Positions 1 to 32,400 of a stretch of 32,400 nucleotides of DNA are shown here, piece after piece (position 1 is the first letter of the stretch; each line of letters opens with the position of its first letter). The position numbers and the translations under genes were made by a program. Source of the stretch: a virus. The notes beneath the pieces were generated by a model that saw only the letters and a list, made by a program, of their open reading frames with translations, ran no database searches and was not told the origin of the DNA. Location of the stretch: the IMG/VR virus record IMGVR_UViG_3300045988_046446. One strand, given 5' to 3'.

Positions 1-56
1 TAGCTGGTTCTTCTGCCTTAGCTGGTTCTTCTGCCTTAGCTGGTTCTTCTGCCTTT
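1..56. repeat. 18-bp tandem repeat (gctggttcttctgcctta), 3 units, coding for (PAKAEE)n on the minus strand
   Basis: Direct reading gives units at 3-20, 21-38 and 39-56. The same unit is present at 32346-32400. Confidence 0.95.
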
Positions 57-919: not shown

Positions 920-1070
920 AATTCTACTTTTTAATCGTTTATCTCCGTTTTAATGTCTCGGTGACCTTCCGCTAGGTGAGTAAACCTTGGTTTCTCCCTT
1001 TCAACGTTACAAATATACGGCTTTTATCAATAGGTTGTACATTCCGTTAACATCATTTAAGAATAAAAGT
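920..1070 (-). promoter_or_regulatory. early promoter-leader cassette, copy 6 (long leader)
   Basis: TATATTTG -7 box at 1010-1017 (minus strand). Upstream element GTTAACGGAATGTACAACC at 1032-1051, with a TTCTTAAATGATG extension to about 1070. The 34-nt register is the same as in the other copies. The leader is about 85 nt. Confidence 0.55.
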
Positions 1071-1073
1071 GCT

Positions 1074-1437
1074 CTGTCTCACTTAAAACGTTGAAAACCA
1101 GGCATTTAAAAAATGAGATTTCGGACTGTGCCACCCCTCGAAAATGCGCTGTCTCACTTAATGCGCTACAAACCAAGCCGTTACAACGGAAAAAGTTGAT
1201 TGTGCCAGGTGAGGCTGATGTTTTCCTATAACTTTATTTGGAATATATAAAATACTACTATACTACGAATATTTAGTAGAGGGGGTAAATTTCAATAATG
1301 CCCAAAATAAAGTGTTATACCATTTTCACTGTCTCACCTGGCACACCTCTATAAATAACTATAATACAGCAAGTTAAGTGAGACAAAGACTGTGCCACCT
1401 AAAAACCGTGCCTGGCACAGTGGCACAGTTTGAGACG
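1074..1437. repeat. noncoding motif array A: about 10 copies of CTGTGCCAC / CTGTCTCAC / CCTGGCACA words in both orientations around an AT-rich core
   Basis: ctgtctcac at 1074, 1149 and 1329. ctgtgccac at 1126 and 1390. tgtgccagg at 1201. cctggcaca at 1337 and 1411. gtggcacag at 1420. gtgagacaa at 1378. No ORF is present. Confidence 0.9.
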
Positions 1438-1438
1438 C

Positions 1439-1470
1439 AAAAAAGGGCACATTCCGAAGAACGCACCCTT
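1439..1470 (-). terminator. rho-independent terminator at the end of the late/lysis operon
   Basis: Minus strand reads AAGGGTGCGTTC-TTCG-GAATGTGCCCTT followed by TTTTTTGC. The stem is 12 bp including G-U pairs, with a UUCG loop. It lies 11 nt after the stop of 1481..2059. Confidence 0.7.
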
Positions 1471-14636: not shown

Positions 14637-14715
14637 AGTTTCATGTGCCGTTCATTAGTTAACGACGCACAAAAGTACGTAGTAAATCGCTACGAAACAA
14701 ACCGCGTCAAGTCTG

Positions 14716-15117
14716 CTATCCGAATTTGTATACATCCAAAACGGCCTCCCAACCAGATTTAATGCTGTCGTACTGGTTCTGCACTTTCGACAAGCGAATA
14801 GAGCCAATCTCGTAGCCGCACACAAAGGCTGCCAACATATCCTGCAAAAGCTGGTCGGTGCGTATCAGTGTCGCAATCTCTACAGCATCATCGCGCATAT
14901 ACTCAGACGTACCCATACAACGAATTACGATTGTGTAGCCGTTGCTTCTCGGTACGTTCACGTCGTTATAAAAGCCCGTGGTTATATCCAGAGTGAAGAA
15001 GTCTACAGACAGACTGTTAGCCGCTACGTTCTGTACGGCTGTATCTCCGAATATGAGAGGCAGCCCTAAAGCTGCCGCACGTGTATTCGCTGTATTGTAA
15101 ATTGTCTCAAAGGTCAT
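14716..15117 (-). CDS. hypothetical structural-module protein (133 aa)
   Basis: ORF in the track, 3 nt from the upstream gene. Confidence 0.6.
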   Translation of the reverse strand: MTFETIYNTANTRAAALGLPLIFGDTAVQNVAANSLSVDFFTLDITTGFYNDVNVPRSNGYTIVIRCMGTSEYMRDDAVEIATLIRTDQLLQDMLAAFVCGYEIGSIRLSKVQNQYDSIKSGWEAVLDVYKFG

Positions 15118-15120
15118 ATG

Positions 15121-15735
15121 TTAACGGTTTTTAGATTGTTGTTTCTTTAATTCACGTTTCTCTTTCTCTATCTCGTCGTTACGTTTGGCGATTGCCAGCA
15201 TAGCATCCGAGTAGTTGACTTGCTTCGCTTCGTCAAAGCTACAGTGGAAAAGCTCGGCTGTTACCTGCACCAGCCCGAGAAGGTTCTTTGCCTGCTTGAT
15301 ATTCTCATCGCCGGTCAACGCGCTTTCACCGCTTTTGCCGTGCATGTTTTGGAAAATCACCTGCTCGAGGCCATCGGCTATTTCCAACTGTTTAACTATG
15401 AATTTGTCAAGCTTCACGGCATCGACGACGGTAACGGGTTCATAGTTATCGTCAGTCCATGCCTTGATACGCCCTAACGCGTCCTCGGCTCTTCGTGTTT
15501 CAAGGATAGCCCATAAACCAATTTCCTCGATGTCCTTAAGGCGGTACACTGCTTTGCCGTTACGGGTTGCTACCTGGGAAGGCTTAAGGTACTTAATCAT
15601 GTCTTTGAGCAAGCGTTCCTCATCGCGCGTCATACGTACCGTGCCATCGGCGGGCATGTTCGCGATACGGAGCATTGCCGCGCGATTACGGATATTAGCA
15701 ATTTTGAAAGATAGTCTAAAAAGTAAATTCTTCAT
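15121..15735 (-). CDS. hypothetical protein (204 aa) downstream of the terminase
   Basis: ORF in the track. Basic K/E-rich C-terminus. No motif recognised. Confidence 0.6.
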   Translation of the reverse strand: MKNLLFRLSFKIANIRNRAAMLRIANMPADGTVRMTRDEERLLKDMIKYLKPSQVATRNGKAVYRLKDIEEIGLWAILETRRAEDALGRIKAWTDDNYEPVTVVDAVKLDKFIVKQLEIADGLEQVIFQNMHGKSGESALTGDENIKQAKNLLGLVQVTAELFHCSFDEAKQVNYSDAMLAIAKRNDEIEKEKRELKKQQSKNR

Positions 15736-17751: not shown

Positions 17752-18148
17752 GCGGCACAGATAACGCGCTATCACACAACGAGTTACAAGCGTTTTTGCC
17801 TACTGTGCCAGGCACGTTTCTGGTGGCACACCTCGGGTGGCACAGATAACGCGCTATGTATCAGACCGTTAGAGCGACTGTGCCACTGTGCCAGGCAAAA
17901 AGCACTTCTCTAACACTTATTTTATAAATAGTATATATTACTGCTATCTCTACATTGCAATTACCATATATTTTTCCAAATAAAGTGTTATACCTATTTT
18001 ATACTATTTAGTGGCACAGTATAGATAACTATATATAGTTCAGTGAGTTATCTGTGCCACTTGCTGTGCCACCCTACATTTTTCCTGGCACAGTAACTGT
18101 TAACGGTATTGTAGGTCAGCGAGTTAAGTGAGACAAGGACTGTGACAC
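17752..18148. repeat. noncoding motif array B: about 12 copies of GTGGCACAG / CTGTGCCAC / CTGTGCCAGG words around an AT-rich core
   Basis: Copies start at 17752, 17803, 17823, 17837, 17878, 17886, 18011, 18052, 18064, 18084, 18128 and 18140. A 21-nt direct repeat G(C/T)GGCACAGATAACGCGCTAT occurs at 17752 and 17837. No ORF is present. Confidence 0.9.
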
Positions 18149-18274
18149 GCCTATATTTTTTACTTGCCATACTTGATTATCAGCACGTTAGCACGGTGCG
18201 CATTTTGATAAGCATTTTTCAATTAACAATCTAAACACTTTTTAAGAATTGAGCTTTCGTAAAATATAATGACA

Positions 18275-19613: not shown

Positions 19614-19886
19614 CTAATCTATTAAATCATTAATACCGGCATACCAATATCTTTCGCACTTTTTGACTACAACATCTTGCGGGTCTAAAAATTTCCCATA
19701 CCATCCTTCGATTTTGGAAGCTTCTACTATAAGTGGGTATGTATATTCATTGTCCCTATACCCCACTACTTCTACTTTCTCGCCGAAGATGCTAACCAAT
19801 CGTCCTACATACTTTTCCATCGGGTGGGCTTCTTTCTGTCTAAACTGTGAGTACATCTCACTAACTGCTTTTGAATACTTTTCCAT
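19614..19886 (-). CDS. small protein, 'VVGY...GW' paralog family (90 aa)
   Basis: VGRLVSIFGEKVEVVGY...IEGW...RYWYAGINDLI aligns with 23378..23653. Preceded by cassette copy 2. Confidence 0.65.
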   Translation of the reverse strand: MEKYSKAVSEMYSQFRQKEAHPMEKYVGRLVSIFGEKVEVVGYRDNEYTYPLIVEASKIEGWYGKFLDPQDVVVKKCERYWYAGINDLID

Positions 19887-19968
19887 AATCTTTTGTTTTT
19901 AAATCGTTGATACAAGTATAACGCTTTTTCCGTTACATTGGTTCTTTCGTTAACATCATTTAAGTATT
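19887..19968 (-). promoter_or_regulatory. early promoter-leader cassette, copy 2
   Basis: Minus strand reads ...CTTAAATGATGTTAACGAAAGAACCAATGTAACGGAAAAAGCGTTATACTTGTATCAACGATTTAAAAACAAAAGATTATG. The -7 box is at 19913-19920 and the upstream element at 19938-19954. Confidence 0.6.
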
Positions 19969-20016
19969 AAACTATCCCTCAACGATAGCCCGTGCTCTAA
20001 TTGCTGTAGCTTGAAA

Positions 20017-24003: not shown

Positions 24004-26454
24004 TTAACTTTCAGACTTGGTATCGACGTCTGCGTTAACAATTCTTTTGAAACCTCTTTGTTGTCCGTATGACTTCACCCTCTGTCTGCTACGCTCCCAC
24101 CCGGGTAACTTGCTCAGTATGTCGTTAATCTCGGAAGCGTCTCGGGCCTTAATCTTTCCTACCTCGAAGCCTAAAGCCTCAACCAGCACGCCCGTAGCGC
24201 TAACGAAGTCCATCTGTACGCATTCCTCTTTTGTTATCTCGTCCTCGTCGTAATTCTCGTAATACATGCGACGCTCCAAAGGAAACATTTTCTCCCAGTT
24301 GGCGGGCACGTACATGTCGCAATACTTTGCAACGGCTTCGGTACGTGGGTCTGTCTCGAAGTGTTCCTCTCTGCCTTGTTCTGCGATTACCTCCGCTTCT
24401 GCGGACAACAACGTAGACACACCGCGGAAATACATGTTAACGGCTTCCGCCCATAACTGGTCTACGTATGCCGGGAAATCGGCCTCAAAGATAAGATGGG
24501 TGTTTTCGTTGGCACGTACACGTACGGGTAAAAATCTACGCCCTCCGGTTGCGTCCTTCAAAAACTCGTCCTTGTTGGTTGTCCCAAAGAAAACGCATTG
24601 ACGCGGAAAGTTCTTTGTTACACGCCCGTACGCTGGTCTAAAGCTGTCCTCGGTCTTGGTGATGAAATTCTTAACCATCTCCACCTCTGAACGTCTCATT
24701 GCTGACAACTCGGCAATCTCCAATATCCAGTTACCCTGCAATTGTTCAAACGCTGTCTTGCCGTCCATCGTTGACAAGCTATCGGAGAACCACTGTTTAC
24801 CCAGCATCTTAAGGAATGTACTTTTTCCTGCCCCTTGGTCTGACTGTAGAACCAGCATACTATCGAACTTGCAACCCTTTTGAAAGATACGTTTAACCGC
24901 ACCTACCATCATGATACGAAAAGCCTCGCGAGTGTATATGTTATCCTCCGCACCGAGTATATCGATTAGGGCGGTATCTACGCGCTCCGTACCGTCCCAT
25001 TCCAAATTAGTTAGGTAGTTCTGCACCGGGTGGAAAGAATTAATCTCGGCAACCAGTGAGATAGCATCATCCACCTTAAACGAGCTACTGATGCCGTAAA
25101 CGTCTTCAATATGCTTTCTAACCCCTGCAAAGTCTACGTCTTGAAAGTCCGTACTACTGTCTTTCGGTCTCCATATAGGGGTACGGGTAACTACCCTGCG
25201 TTCTTTAAATAGGTCTCGTGCTATCAGCCCTTTTAAATTCGGGTCGTACTTAAGTATTAAACCCAGGTTCTTTGCGCTCGACAAGTAATTACCTTTTTTA
25301 TCTACTTCGAGTTCCGCCATCACCTTTTCAAATGATACCTCGGGCAAATTGTCGTGAACCTCTTCGGGTTCAATGGTTTCTTCGAAGTCATTCATAACCT
25401 CGGTAGTCTTTGCAAGCAAACGGGACGCACGCATTTCCGCTACCTTCGCGTCCTTGTTTACAAGTTCGTTCATCGCGTCTGTTGACTTCGTGCGGTCTTG
25501 TCCCTTATCCATCTTGCCGAACTTGTGTACACGTACCAAGTCGTAGGCATTAAACACGTGGTTACCTTGGATGGGGTCGTTGTTATGGAATGAGTATGCA
25601 AACATATCGTTGAAAGTAAGCATACCGCCCGAAGTAGAACCGCCGCTATACGTCCATCTGTCCGGCTGGTCGGTCGGTTCGTAAACGTCCGGCAAGTATT
25701 CCGCGATAACTTCTGAAATGGTGTACGCCCGGCAAAAGTCGCCTACCGTACCTTCCTTTAAAGTAGGGTCTTGCTGCTCCTTAACAAAGGTACGTACTTC
25801 GCCTTTCTCATCCTTGTGGTATGCCCATTCCGTCGTGTCGTGCCAATCTTCGTACATGTTAAGGTATTCGTTCACGTCCAAAGGGGTTTCACATAACTGT
25901 GAATAGTCGGTGTAATCATAGTCTACGTCTCGGGACACGGAGGGGAAAAACATACATCGCTCGGGCTGAAAGGTCGTTCGGTCGTACAAGTCTATCCCGG
26001 TAATCTCGGCAACCTTCCTGGCAATAGCTTCGTACTGCTCACCGTCCACGGGTTCGGACAACGGAATAATAACGCGATAACGCAACACACCTGCTTTCGG
26101 GTTATGCTTATGTGTCCCGTGTATGATGCAGGCACAATTGATAGCTGCGAAAAAACGCTCCGGGAAGTCAGCCTCTCCGTAGTCGATATCAAGCGCCAAT
26201 AGCGAACGCTCGCCTACGTTGTTTTTGTTTCGCCTGCTACCGAATAATTCACCGCCCATGAATGCGCCTACGTCTTTAATCGCTCCTTGTTCGGCTTTGC
26301 TCGCTGCCATGAACTCGCGGTATGTTTCTTCCGTTACCTTCGCACTGGTGAACTTCTTTGCAAGTTCTTCCCATGTGTAGGTACGGTTCTTCCAACTTAC
26401 CGACTTCGCGTTAGTAGCGGTCGCAACCTTAAAAGTCATTTTTTTTAATTCCAT
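24004..26454 (-). CDS. DNA primase / VirE-family (P-loop) helicase fusion
   Basis: The C-terminal region QSDQGAGKSTFLKMLG...WILEIAEL...FRPAYGR...VFFGTTN..FLKDATGGRRFLPVRV is a close match to the virulence-associated protein E family pattern. The N-terminal half has LALDIDYGE and GTHKH motifs compatible with a primase-polymerase domain. Confidence 0.85.
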   Translation of the reverse strand: MELKKMTFKVATATNAKSVSWKNRTYTWEELAKKFTSAKVTEETYREFMAASKAEQGAIKDVGAFMGGELFGSRRNKNNVGERSLLALDIDYGEADFPERFFAAINCACIIHGTHKHNPKAGVLRYRVIIPLSEPVDGEQYEAIARKVAEITGIDLYDRTTFQPERCMFFPSVSRDVDYDYTDYSQLCETPLDVNEYLNMYEDWHDTTEWAYHKDEKGEVRTFVKEQQDPTLKEGTVGDFCRAYTISEVIAEYLPDVYEPTDQPDRWTYSGGSTSGGMLTFNDMFAYSFHNNDPIQGNHVFNAYDLVRVHKFGKMDKGQDRTKSTDAMNELVNKDAKVAEMRASRLLAKTTEVMNDFEETIEPEEVHDNLPEVSFEKVMAELEVDKKGNYLSSAKNLGLILKYDPNLKGLIARDLFKERRVVTRTPIWRPKDSSTDFQDVDFAGVRKHIEDVYGISSSFKVDDAISLVAEINSFHPVQNYLTNLEWDGTERVDTALIDILGAEDNIYTREAFRIMMVGAVKRIFQKGCKFDSMLVLQSDQGAGKSTFLKMLGKQWFSDSLSTMDGKTAFEQLQGNWILEIAELSAMRRSEVEMVKNFITKTEDSFRPAYGRVTKNFPRQCVFFGTTNKDEFLKDATGGRRFLPVRVRANENTHLIFEADFPAYVDQLWAEAVNMYFRGVSTLLSAEAEVIAEQGREEHFETDPRTEAVAKYCDMYVPANWEKMFPLERRMYYENYDEDEITKEECVQMDFVSATGVLVEALGFEVGKIKARDASEINDILSKLPGWERSRQRVKSYGQQRGFKRIVNADVDTKSES

Positions 26455-32154: not shown

Positions 32155-32400
32155 CTCGTCAGGGGGTAATTTTCAATACGTTGTTTAAGTAAAGCATACT
32201 TGGAAGGGTTAACTGATGACAGAGACGTACCCCCGAACTCCAATAAGATAGAGGCCATTTCATCACGGGTAACGTGCCCGGTTCTAACACTTGATATAAC
32301 AAGTGTTTGCATCTCCTTCAAAGTAGGTGCTTCGCTCTTCGTTTCTTCTTCTGCCTTAGCTGGTTCTTCTGCCTTAGCTGGTTCTTCTGCCTTAGCTGGT
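32151..32400 (-). CDS. 3' portion of the junction-spanning CDS (...PAKAEEPAKAEEETKSEAPTLKEMQTLVISSVRTGHVTRDEMASILLEFGG...RIENYPLTR*)
   Basis: Open frame entering from the right edge. The TGA at 32151-32153 overlaps the ATG of the nuclease gene (ATGA). It is in phase with 1..331. Confidence 0.7.
   Translation of the reverse strand, partial: PAKAEEPAKAEEPAKAEEETKSEAPTLKEMQTLVISSVRTGHVTRDEMASILLEFGGTSLSSVNPSKYALLKQRIENYPLTR
32346..32400. repeat. 18-bp tandem repeat, same unit as at 1-56
   Basis: A partial unit at 32346-32358, full units at 32359-32376 and 32377-32394, and a partial unit to 32400. The last 44 nt equal the first 44 nt. Confidence 0.95.

Follow-up and report, generated by a model that had tools for sequence, protein, structure and literature searches.

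Paired arrays of a short DNA word as candidate iteron-type replication origins in a Bacteroides uniformis siphophage genome

Described origin systems and how the window compares

The Rep proteins of SaPIs are self-loading initiator helicases whose C-terminal winged helix recognises iterons of 5-6 nt, and the SaPI ori has an AT-rich region with half of its 6-12 iterons on either side, of which no fewer than two on each side point in opposite directions (PMC9371898). In the DNA analysed here (hereafter the window, meaning the whole stretch of ~32.4 kb), two intergenic arrays of a short word, arrays A and B, together with an 816-aa primase-helicase resemble this system in several respects. The protein is like SaPI Rep and PriRep (PDB 7pds, 7ola) in having a VapE-type SF3 ATPase and a C-terminal winged helix, and like SaPI5 in that a primase is fused to the helicase. 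The putative iterons are also short and split around an AT-rich region (10 words in array A, 11 in array B), and, as between related SaPIs, the C-terminal domain of the candidate initiator and the specificity of the iterons change together (r = 0.61-0.84 here). However, the window words are of 7-8 nt instead of 5-6 nt, and there are two complete arrays per genome instead of one. Moreover, the SaPI ori lies immediately 3' of rep, whereas the window arrays are 5.8 and ~7 kb away, at operon boundaries. Each window array also has an extra conserved core of ~110 nt with its own inverted repeat, and the window comes from a Bacteroidota phage rather than a Firmicutes satellite.

A second comparison is provided by Bacillus phage SPP1, whose gp38 binds two elements of similar build, each made of repeats plus AT-rich DNA. 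Initiation has been reconstituted at one of them, oriL, and the other, oriR, has been proposed as a fork barrier that triggers concatemer synthesis (PMC6316719, PMC3485210). The window resembles SPP1 in that a single phage genome carries two elements organised alike, with repeats and an AT-rich DUE (putative in the window) in each. In SPP1, one initiator binds both elements, and one of the two is intergenic, between transcription signals (PMC6316719); for the window arrays, we infer a common binder. However, gp38 is unrelated to the candidate initiator of the window and needs a separate loader (gp39) and a DnaB-type helicase (gp40), oriL is located inside the initiator gene, and the two SPP1 elements are ~13 kb apart in 44 kb and thus not antipodal. 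Among the scanned genes of the window, no DnaB-type helicase was found.

The alpha protein of satellite phage P4 reportedly combines a primase, a helicase, and a C-terminal winged-helix origin-binding domain. In P4, the same octamer iteron occurs in two clusters (ori and crr) kilobases apart, both of which are needed in cis. The window is thus similar to P4 in having primase, helicase, and winged helix in one polypeptide and an iteron in two distant clusters, but alpha and the window protein are not close homologues, the primase type of alpha differs from the AEP-like domain modelled in the window protein, and P4 crr does not duplicate ori. The lambdoid OL/OR operators offer a further parallel, with short sites in two distant clusters, one phage protein that reads them, and a lineage-specific ('immunity') specificity. 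In those operators, however, the sites overlap promoters, and their reader is a small HTH repressor whose gene lies next to them; the window has no such repressor gene and no evident promoter overlap, and the covarying protein is a replication helicase. Compared with known iteron origins, the arrangement proposed here would be new in being duplicated, rep-distal, and nearly antipodal, with specificities that switch together. In a brief literature search, no origin was found to be described for gut Bacteroidales siphophages.

Genome context and anatomy of the two arrays

By megablast, the window was found to be ~80% identical to the Bacteroides uniformis siphophages C2_18_80S2P, BU730P1, BU1-1, EMB1/2, BU183P1/2, and others; it is a B. 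uniformis siphophage genome. Every long ORF in the ORF list is on the minus strand, and because all genes are on one strand, GC skew gave no information on an origin. Given that both ends of the window (1-56 and 32345-32400) lie inside one 18-nt tandem repeat, gccttagctggttcttct, it is plausible that the genome is circular. The ORF that contains this repeat is homologous to C2_18_80S2P gene 14655-15209. Probably, the contig was a circle that was opened within a coding tandem repeat, and the number of repeat copies may be uncertain.

Along the direction of transcription, array B is followed by terS and terL and then by the capsid, tail, and lysis genes. After these late genes come the terminator, array A, the early promoter cassette, small early genes, and then the genes for a DUF2800 nuclease, a DUF2815 SSB, a phosphoesterase, PolA, the VapE-family protein, a VRR-NUC protein, and an SNF2 helicase; further small genes and a terminator-like hairpin lead back to array B. 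The features around array A, and array B as a whole, are as follows.

1443-1470, minus strand: intrinsic terminator of the late operon (structural and lysis genes), directly upstream of array A along transcription
1412-1427, plus strand: array A word pair 3, CTGGCACA (1412) and GTGGCACA (1420)
1379-1398, minus strand: array A word pair 2, variant TTGTCTCA (1379-1386) and GTGGCACA (1391-1398), 12 nt apart
1346-1378: array A AT-rich spacer, ~32 nt, 75% A+T, between convergent word pairs
1329-1345, plus strand: array A word pair 1, CTGTCTCA (1329) and CTGGCACA (1338), 9 nt start to start
1214-1328: array A AT-rich core, ~110-115 nt, 74% A+T (window average 54%)
1074-1208: array A left arm, two tandem units of ~75 nt (1066-1140 and 1141-1215)
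935-1067, minus strand: early promoter cassette, downstream of array A and separate from it, with the -7 box TATATTTG
17804-18148: array B, paralogue upstream of terS, 10 exact words and 1 variant

The first-pass annotation of this DNA had described the interval around array A as ORF-free, adjacent to the late-operon terminator, and matched by a second array at the opposite operon boundary. Our analyses bear this out. There was no ORF of 50 aa or more within 935-1430, and the terminator was located at 1443-1470 on the minus strand. Array A follows this terminator and array B follows the terminator-like hairpin, and beyond each array comes the promoter region that serves the next operon; terS begins 100-400 nt downstream of array B. 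The two arrays are nearly antipodal, with distances of 16.7 and 15.7 kb in the window and similar values in C2_18_80S2P, BU183P2, and BV739P1. These two distances had been given earlier for a circular map, and they hold only if the window is circular, which the shared terminal repeat makes plausible.

The words that had been listed for array A were each found at their reported positions: CTGTCTCAC at 1074, 1149, and 1329, CTGTGCCAC at 1126 and 1390, TGTGCCAGG at 1201 with its reverse complement at 1337 and 1411, GTGGCACAG at 1420, and GTGAGACA at 1378. However, several of them are reverse complements of one another; when oriented on one strand, they collapse to a single 8-nt family, [C/G]TG[G/T]C[A/T]CA. 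The motif statistics that had been suggested as a check revealed clear enrichment. This family matched 24 times in the window, compared with 4.85 +/- 2.35 matches expected from 100 shuffles, and none of the 100 shuffles reached 24. Nineteen of the 24 matches fall within arrays A and B (~0.7 kb), and the remaining 5 correspond to chance expectation. Likewise, 15 of the 18 occurrences of TGTGCCA in the window (both strands) are in the two arrays, and TGTCTCAC is confined to them window-wide.

Array A spans 1074-1427 and contains 9 exact words and 1 variant. In oriented form, it consists of left words (-), the core, a pair (+,+), the 32-nt AT spacer, a pair (-,-), and a further pair (+,+). The tandem units of the left arm carry CTGTCTCA on the plus strand (1074 and 1149) and GTGGCACA or CTGGCACA on the minus strand (1127 and 1201), and these left-arm words were invariant in 10 sequences of the window clade. 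Word pair 1 (+,+) and word pair 2 (-,-) flank the 32-nt spacer, such that the words are split and oppositely oriented as in the SaPI ori; a second split arrangement, this one divergent, is formed around the core by the left words (-) and pair 1 (+). In both arrays the word order around the AT-rich segments is -/+ +/- -/+ +. By analogy with the layout of the SaPI ori (PMC9371898), the spacer at 1346-1378 is proposed as a melting site. A 17-mer of word pair 3 was found again in array B and in 20 related loci. On the minus strand, word pair 3 and its flank (1405-1421) make up a 7-bp hairpin with a T run behind it; this may be a second terminator, arranged in tandem with that at 1443-1470.

An AT-rich core at about 1215-1325 had been noted previously, and its composition (74% A+T, compared with 54% for the window) agrees with that description. 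The core of array A is bounded by an inverted repeat, TATAACTTTATTTGG (1227-1241) and CCAAAATAAAGTGTTATA (1302-1319), and that of array B by the corresponding repeat at 17911-17923 and 17976-17994; the consensus in both arrays is TATAAC(AC)TTTATTT(T)GG. In relatives, the outer blocks of the core were nearly invariant whatever the word. Because the core stays unchanged when the word changes, it would be read by something other than the word-binder, implying that a second, conserved factor or function may act on it.

In array B, the words left of the core are at 17804(-), 17823(+), 17837(+), 17879(-), and 17887(-). The core (17895-18010) is followed by a word at 18011(+), the spacer (18019-18052), and words at 18053(-), 18065(-), 18085(+), 18129(-; variant), and 18141(-). 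Comparison of the two arrays, which had likewise been recommended, showed that they align collinearly, plus/plus, over ~280 nt with 63% identity and with the same order and orientation; judged by this alignment, arrays A and B are collinear paralogues. In the window and its relatives alike, the centre of the core and the size of the left arm consistently set A apart from B. Array B also contains an extra pair-2-like module at 18118-18149. This module is 91% identical (29/32) to 1367-1398 of array A, which suggests that sequence has been exchanged between the arrays.

Word switching among relatives and the candidate initiator

When the arrays were compared with a phage collection by blastn, array A matched only through the adjacent early cassette and array B matched nothing. 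The impression that the arrays are absent from relatives was ruled out when the homologous intergenic regions were read directly: 8 of 8 isolate relatives carry two arrays at the same two positions and with the same layout, but with a different word. Seven of these isolate genomes have the word CTGTGCA; in BU183P2, CTGGTCA stands in for CTGTGCA at every position of both arrays. Scanning IMG/VR with the conserved core motif yielded ~55 further array-bearing loci on ~35 contigs and two more word types, CTGTGTA and CTGTGTC. In IMG/VR contigs with both arrays, A and B share the word type, except for one mixed contig. The pattern extends to the distant Phocaeicola phage BV739P1: although its DNA has little in common with that of the window, arrays built from the word TGTTCC occupy both equivalent positions. 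Absence of the arrays from relatives with the same operon structure had been named as evidence that would speak against the original interpretation; two arrays were present in all relatives examined. Moreover, no word pair and neither AT-rich segment is missing from either array in any genome examined, and no sequence feature marks either array as defective.

The pattern of substitution was then compared within and between word types. A scan with the 17-mer of the window recovered loci from at least 10 contigs of the window clade, at 84-94% nucleotide identity. Within this clade, variable columns made up 7 of 152 in the words and 156 of 776 elsewhere in the arrays (Fisher p = 6e-7); 32 of the word columns were fixed by the search pattern, and when these are excluded the proportions are still ~6% and 20%. 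Between types the pattern is reversed. When BU183P2 was compared with BU1-1, mismatches occupied 22/52 word columns vs 19/179 columns outside the words in array A, and 18/52 vs 25/169 in array B. Words are thus kept within a type and replaced between types in both arrays, as predicted for a trans-acting, sequence-specific binder. A shared binding factor had been proposed in the first-pass annotation, and the finding that the arrays form one site family, with the word switching in both together, fits that proposal.

The protein that best corresponds to such a binder is the product of a gene of the early region.

24004-26454, minus strand: candidate binder and initiator, 816 aa, predicted AEP primase / SF3 helicase / winged-helix fusion

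Several analyses were used to assign its domains. Pfam placed a VapE-like domain at aa 481-698, and phmmer matched the protein to SaPI1 Rep1 (PDB 7pds) with E = 5e-76. An AlphaFold2 model of aa 394-816 (423 aa; alignment of 67 sequences; pLDDT 89) superposed on 7pds over 428 columns (TM 0.85/0.80, 34% identity), and the match therefore includes the C-terminal domain. In this part of the protein, aa 394-740 form a SaPI-Rep-like NTD and SF3/VapE ATPase, and aa 745-804 (nt 24043-24222) are modelled as a beta-alpha-alpha-beta-beta winged helix. The N-terminal 394 aa had no Pfam match and no PDB sequence match; their model (pLDDT 85), with an AEP PrimPol-like domain at ~aa 1-290, best matched AEP primase-polymerases (S-2L PrimPol 6zp9_A, E = 5e-6; RepB'). 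Given the VapE Pfam domain, the 7pds match, and the two models, the product of 24004-26454 is predicted to be a primase / SF3 helicase / winged-helix fusion like SaPI5 PriRep5. No words were found next to 24004, at the 3' end of the gene. The late module and the VapE gene co-occur throughout the Bacteroidales group.

Identity between the window protein and its relatives is 76% over the whole length and 85-95% across the catalytic parts, but it drops to 34-40% in the last 100 aa, which is also the most variable region among the relatives themselves. To examine which genes are inherited with the word, the BU183P2 genome was screened for 14-mers that occur in at least 3 of the 4 CTGGTCA-type contigs and are absent from every other locus; nearly all of the early region could be tested in this way. 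Such 14-mers were found in the two arrays and in the 3' third of the VapE-family gene, the exceptions being five isolated stray runs in three other genes. Besides the primase-helicase, no gene of the testable early region was co-inherited with the word type. For the CTGTGTA type, specific k-mers gave only one run in the 3' end of the helicase gene, and in a column test on the helicase only three columns separated the CTGGTCA type, which is too weak by itself.

The wing loop, the loop that follows the recognition helix, was also compared with the word. The class of this loop matched the extended word in 20 of 21 contigs, although these counts are not independent events because the sequences are related by descent; the single non-matching contig holds only one partial array. 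The loop also differs within the CTGTGCA class. The pairings were as follows.

Wing loop AANGK: extended word CTGTGCAGG
Wing loop SARQI: extended word CTGTGCAGT
Wing loop SAKAR / SAGQK: extended word CTGTGCAT
Wing loop GWKR..[DE]A[KR]: extended word CTGTGTAA
Wing loop AANARPV: extended word CTGTGTCGT
Wing loop AAGRR: word CTGGTCA

Covariation was also measured across all BU183P2 proteins, using 721 overlapping windows of 40 aa and 26 contigs. With seven word classes, which were refined post hoc after the protein alignment had been seen, aa 751-800 of the primase-helicase correlated best with word class (r = 0.84 among the 721 windows); the eight best windows all lay in the C-terminal region of this protein, and the best value for any other protein was r = 0.36. 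With the four classes set a priori, the winged-helix window had r = 0.61 and ranked 4 of 721, behind three windows of a small structural gene that was sampled in only 13 contigs. Owing to the common ancestry of the sequences, these correlations do not count as independent events either. The small early ORFs were considered as alternative binders and rejected, since none had a DNA-binding match in Pfam or PHROG and none was co-inherited with the word type. Taken together, these data suggest that the binder of the array words is likely the winged-helix C-terminal domain of the VapE/Rep-like primase-helicase.

Proposed role of the arrays and competing readings

Arrays A and B are, in our judgement, probably iteron-type replication origins for the phage's own 816-aa initiator. 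A pair of replication signals had been offered as an alternative in the first-pass annotation, and the layout resembling the SaPI ori, together with a Rep-type protein that covaries with the word, makes this the reading that we favour. In such a mechanism, the winged helix would read the 8-nt word [C/G]TG[G/T]C[A/T]CA, and oppositely oriented word pairs flanking an AT-rich segment would position the helicase rings; the 32-nt spacer, and perhaps the ~110-nt core as well, could serve as this segment. The DNA would then melt, the N-terminal primase would prime, and the phage PolA would extend. Several points weigh against an origin function: the arrays are rep-distal, unlike the SaPI ori immediately 3' of rep; the winged helix was placed only fourth (r = 0.61) by the four a-priori classes; the correlations come from sequences of common descent; the wing loop differs even among phages of the CTGTGCA class; and the conserved ~110-nt core is not explained.

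It is also conceivable, at rather long odds, that only one array (A or B) is the origin and that the other is an auxiliary site bound by Rep, either an enhancer that loops to the origin like P4 crr or a barrier that switches replication to concatemers like SPP1 oriR. The precedents of P4 ori/crr and of SPP1 oriL/oriR would suit such a division of labour, as would the same orientation of A and B and their consistent differences in core centre and left-arm size. However, full word pairs and both AT-rich segments were present in both arrays of every genome examined, and neither array looks defective by sequence. Somewhat less probable still is that the words are transcription operators, at which a phage regulator, or Rep acting as a regulator or roadblock, would bind at both operon boundaries and repress, activate, or insulate the early cassette (A) and the late operon (B), possibly by looping, an idea already put forward in the first-pass annotation. 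In its favour are the position of each array, preceded by a terminator (A) or a terminator-like hairpin (B) and followed by the next operon's promoter region; the place of array B directly before terS; the likeness of the lineage-specific words to immunity operators; and a weak -7-like box, TTATTTTG, which lies beside word pair 1 on the minus strand, where the core ends on its right side. Against this, neither array was found to contain the canonical Bacteroides -7 box TAnnTTTG when the sequence was read by eye. The adjacent early cassette, in contrast, has a perfect box of this kind (TATATTTG, read on the minus strand at 1010-1017), and this cassette is also found elsewhere without any array. 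(A sigma-70 promoter scan was set aside, the sigma-70 consensus not being relevant to Bacteroides.) Moreover, no small protein with a DNA-binding domain was found among the scanned ORFs and none covaries with the word, only the primase-helicase was co-inherited with the word type in the testable early region, and the layout of the AT-rich segments with a Rep-type binder suits an origin better.

Two further readings appear very improbable. Packaging signals (pac sites bound by the small terminase) had been suggested earlier, and array B does lie 100-400 nt upstream of terS, whose product has a weak GP3_package match. However, terS is 95-99% identical among phages with four different words, it has no type-specific k-mers, and its correlation with word class is 0.20; because terS does not covary with the word, a packaging role was rejected and we give it scarcely any weight. 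Nor would a second full copy half a genome away be expected of a pac site. Phage-plasmids carry dispersed short-repeat arrays bound by one protein, and plasmid iterons also control copy number, which would accord with centromere-like or copy-control (handcuffing) sites for a plasmid-like carrier state. This is only slightly more credible than packaging, given that no ParA/ParB or other partition genes were found among the approximately two dozen early-region ORFs scanned, that a search of 185,579 representative GTDB genomes gave 68 matches compared with 69 by chance, none of which resembles the window, and that the relatives were isolated as plaque-forming lytic phages according to the source lines of their records. 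A structured RNA was rejected as well: the arrays had no Rfam match at the gathering score and no tRNA, and the fold z-scores were inconsistent between array A (-3.6 and -2.1, driven by the inverted words) and array B (-0.3 and +0.2).

If the origin reading is correct, it provides a concrete pair of candidate origin and candidate initiator for abundant gut Bacteroidales siphophages. At least six natural word specificities, with matching changes in a winged helix of ~40 residues, would offer a system for studying how initiator-origin specificity evolves. One would also have to ask why a phage of 32-36 kb maintains two complete origins, separated by half its genome and both located at operon boundaries. 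A more speculative extension, which we regard as doubtful, is that the array pair is coupled rather than two independent origins and that switching of word and wing defines replication 'specificity groups'. Coupling could possibly occur through Rep-mediated looping or handcuffing, or through programmed fork arrest that times a switch to concatemer synthesis. Were this true, array B, directly upstream of terS, could couple replication to expression of the late operon, and, owing to the specificity groups, gut Bacteroides phages that circulate together would escape cross-interference or origin decoys. In practical terms, the arrays are candidate parts for Bacteroides vectors and could support type-specific 'origin decoy' resistance, and engineering of these phages should leave them intact.

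Some additional features were noted. Among relatives, the early module shows a high degree of mosaicism, and in some of them genes for a Dam-type methyltransferase and an HNH endonuclease occur at several early-region positions, with no counterpart in the window. The C2_18_80S2P record (OR296438.1) contains a poly-T run of ~45 nt near its end (33642-33685), which may be a genuine homopolymer or may have arisen as an artefact of assembly or of the terminus. The early promoter cassette (~990-1067 and other copies) has counterparts of 81-86% identity in phages of Phocaeicola and in other Bacteroides phages, although little of their remaining DNA resembles the window. Finally, a 109-nt segment of the window (19868-19976) is 92-94% identical to the Phocaeicola phages BV739P1 and BD26P1/2, a similarity far exceeding that of the flanking sequence, and may be a conserved regulatory or mobile segment.
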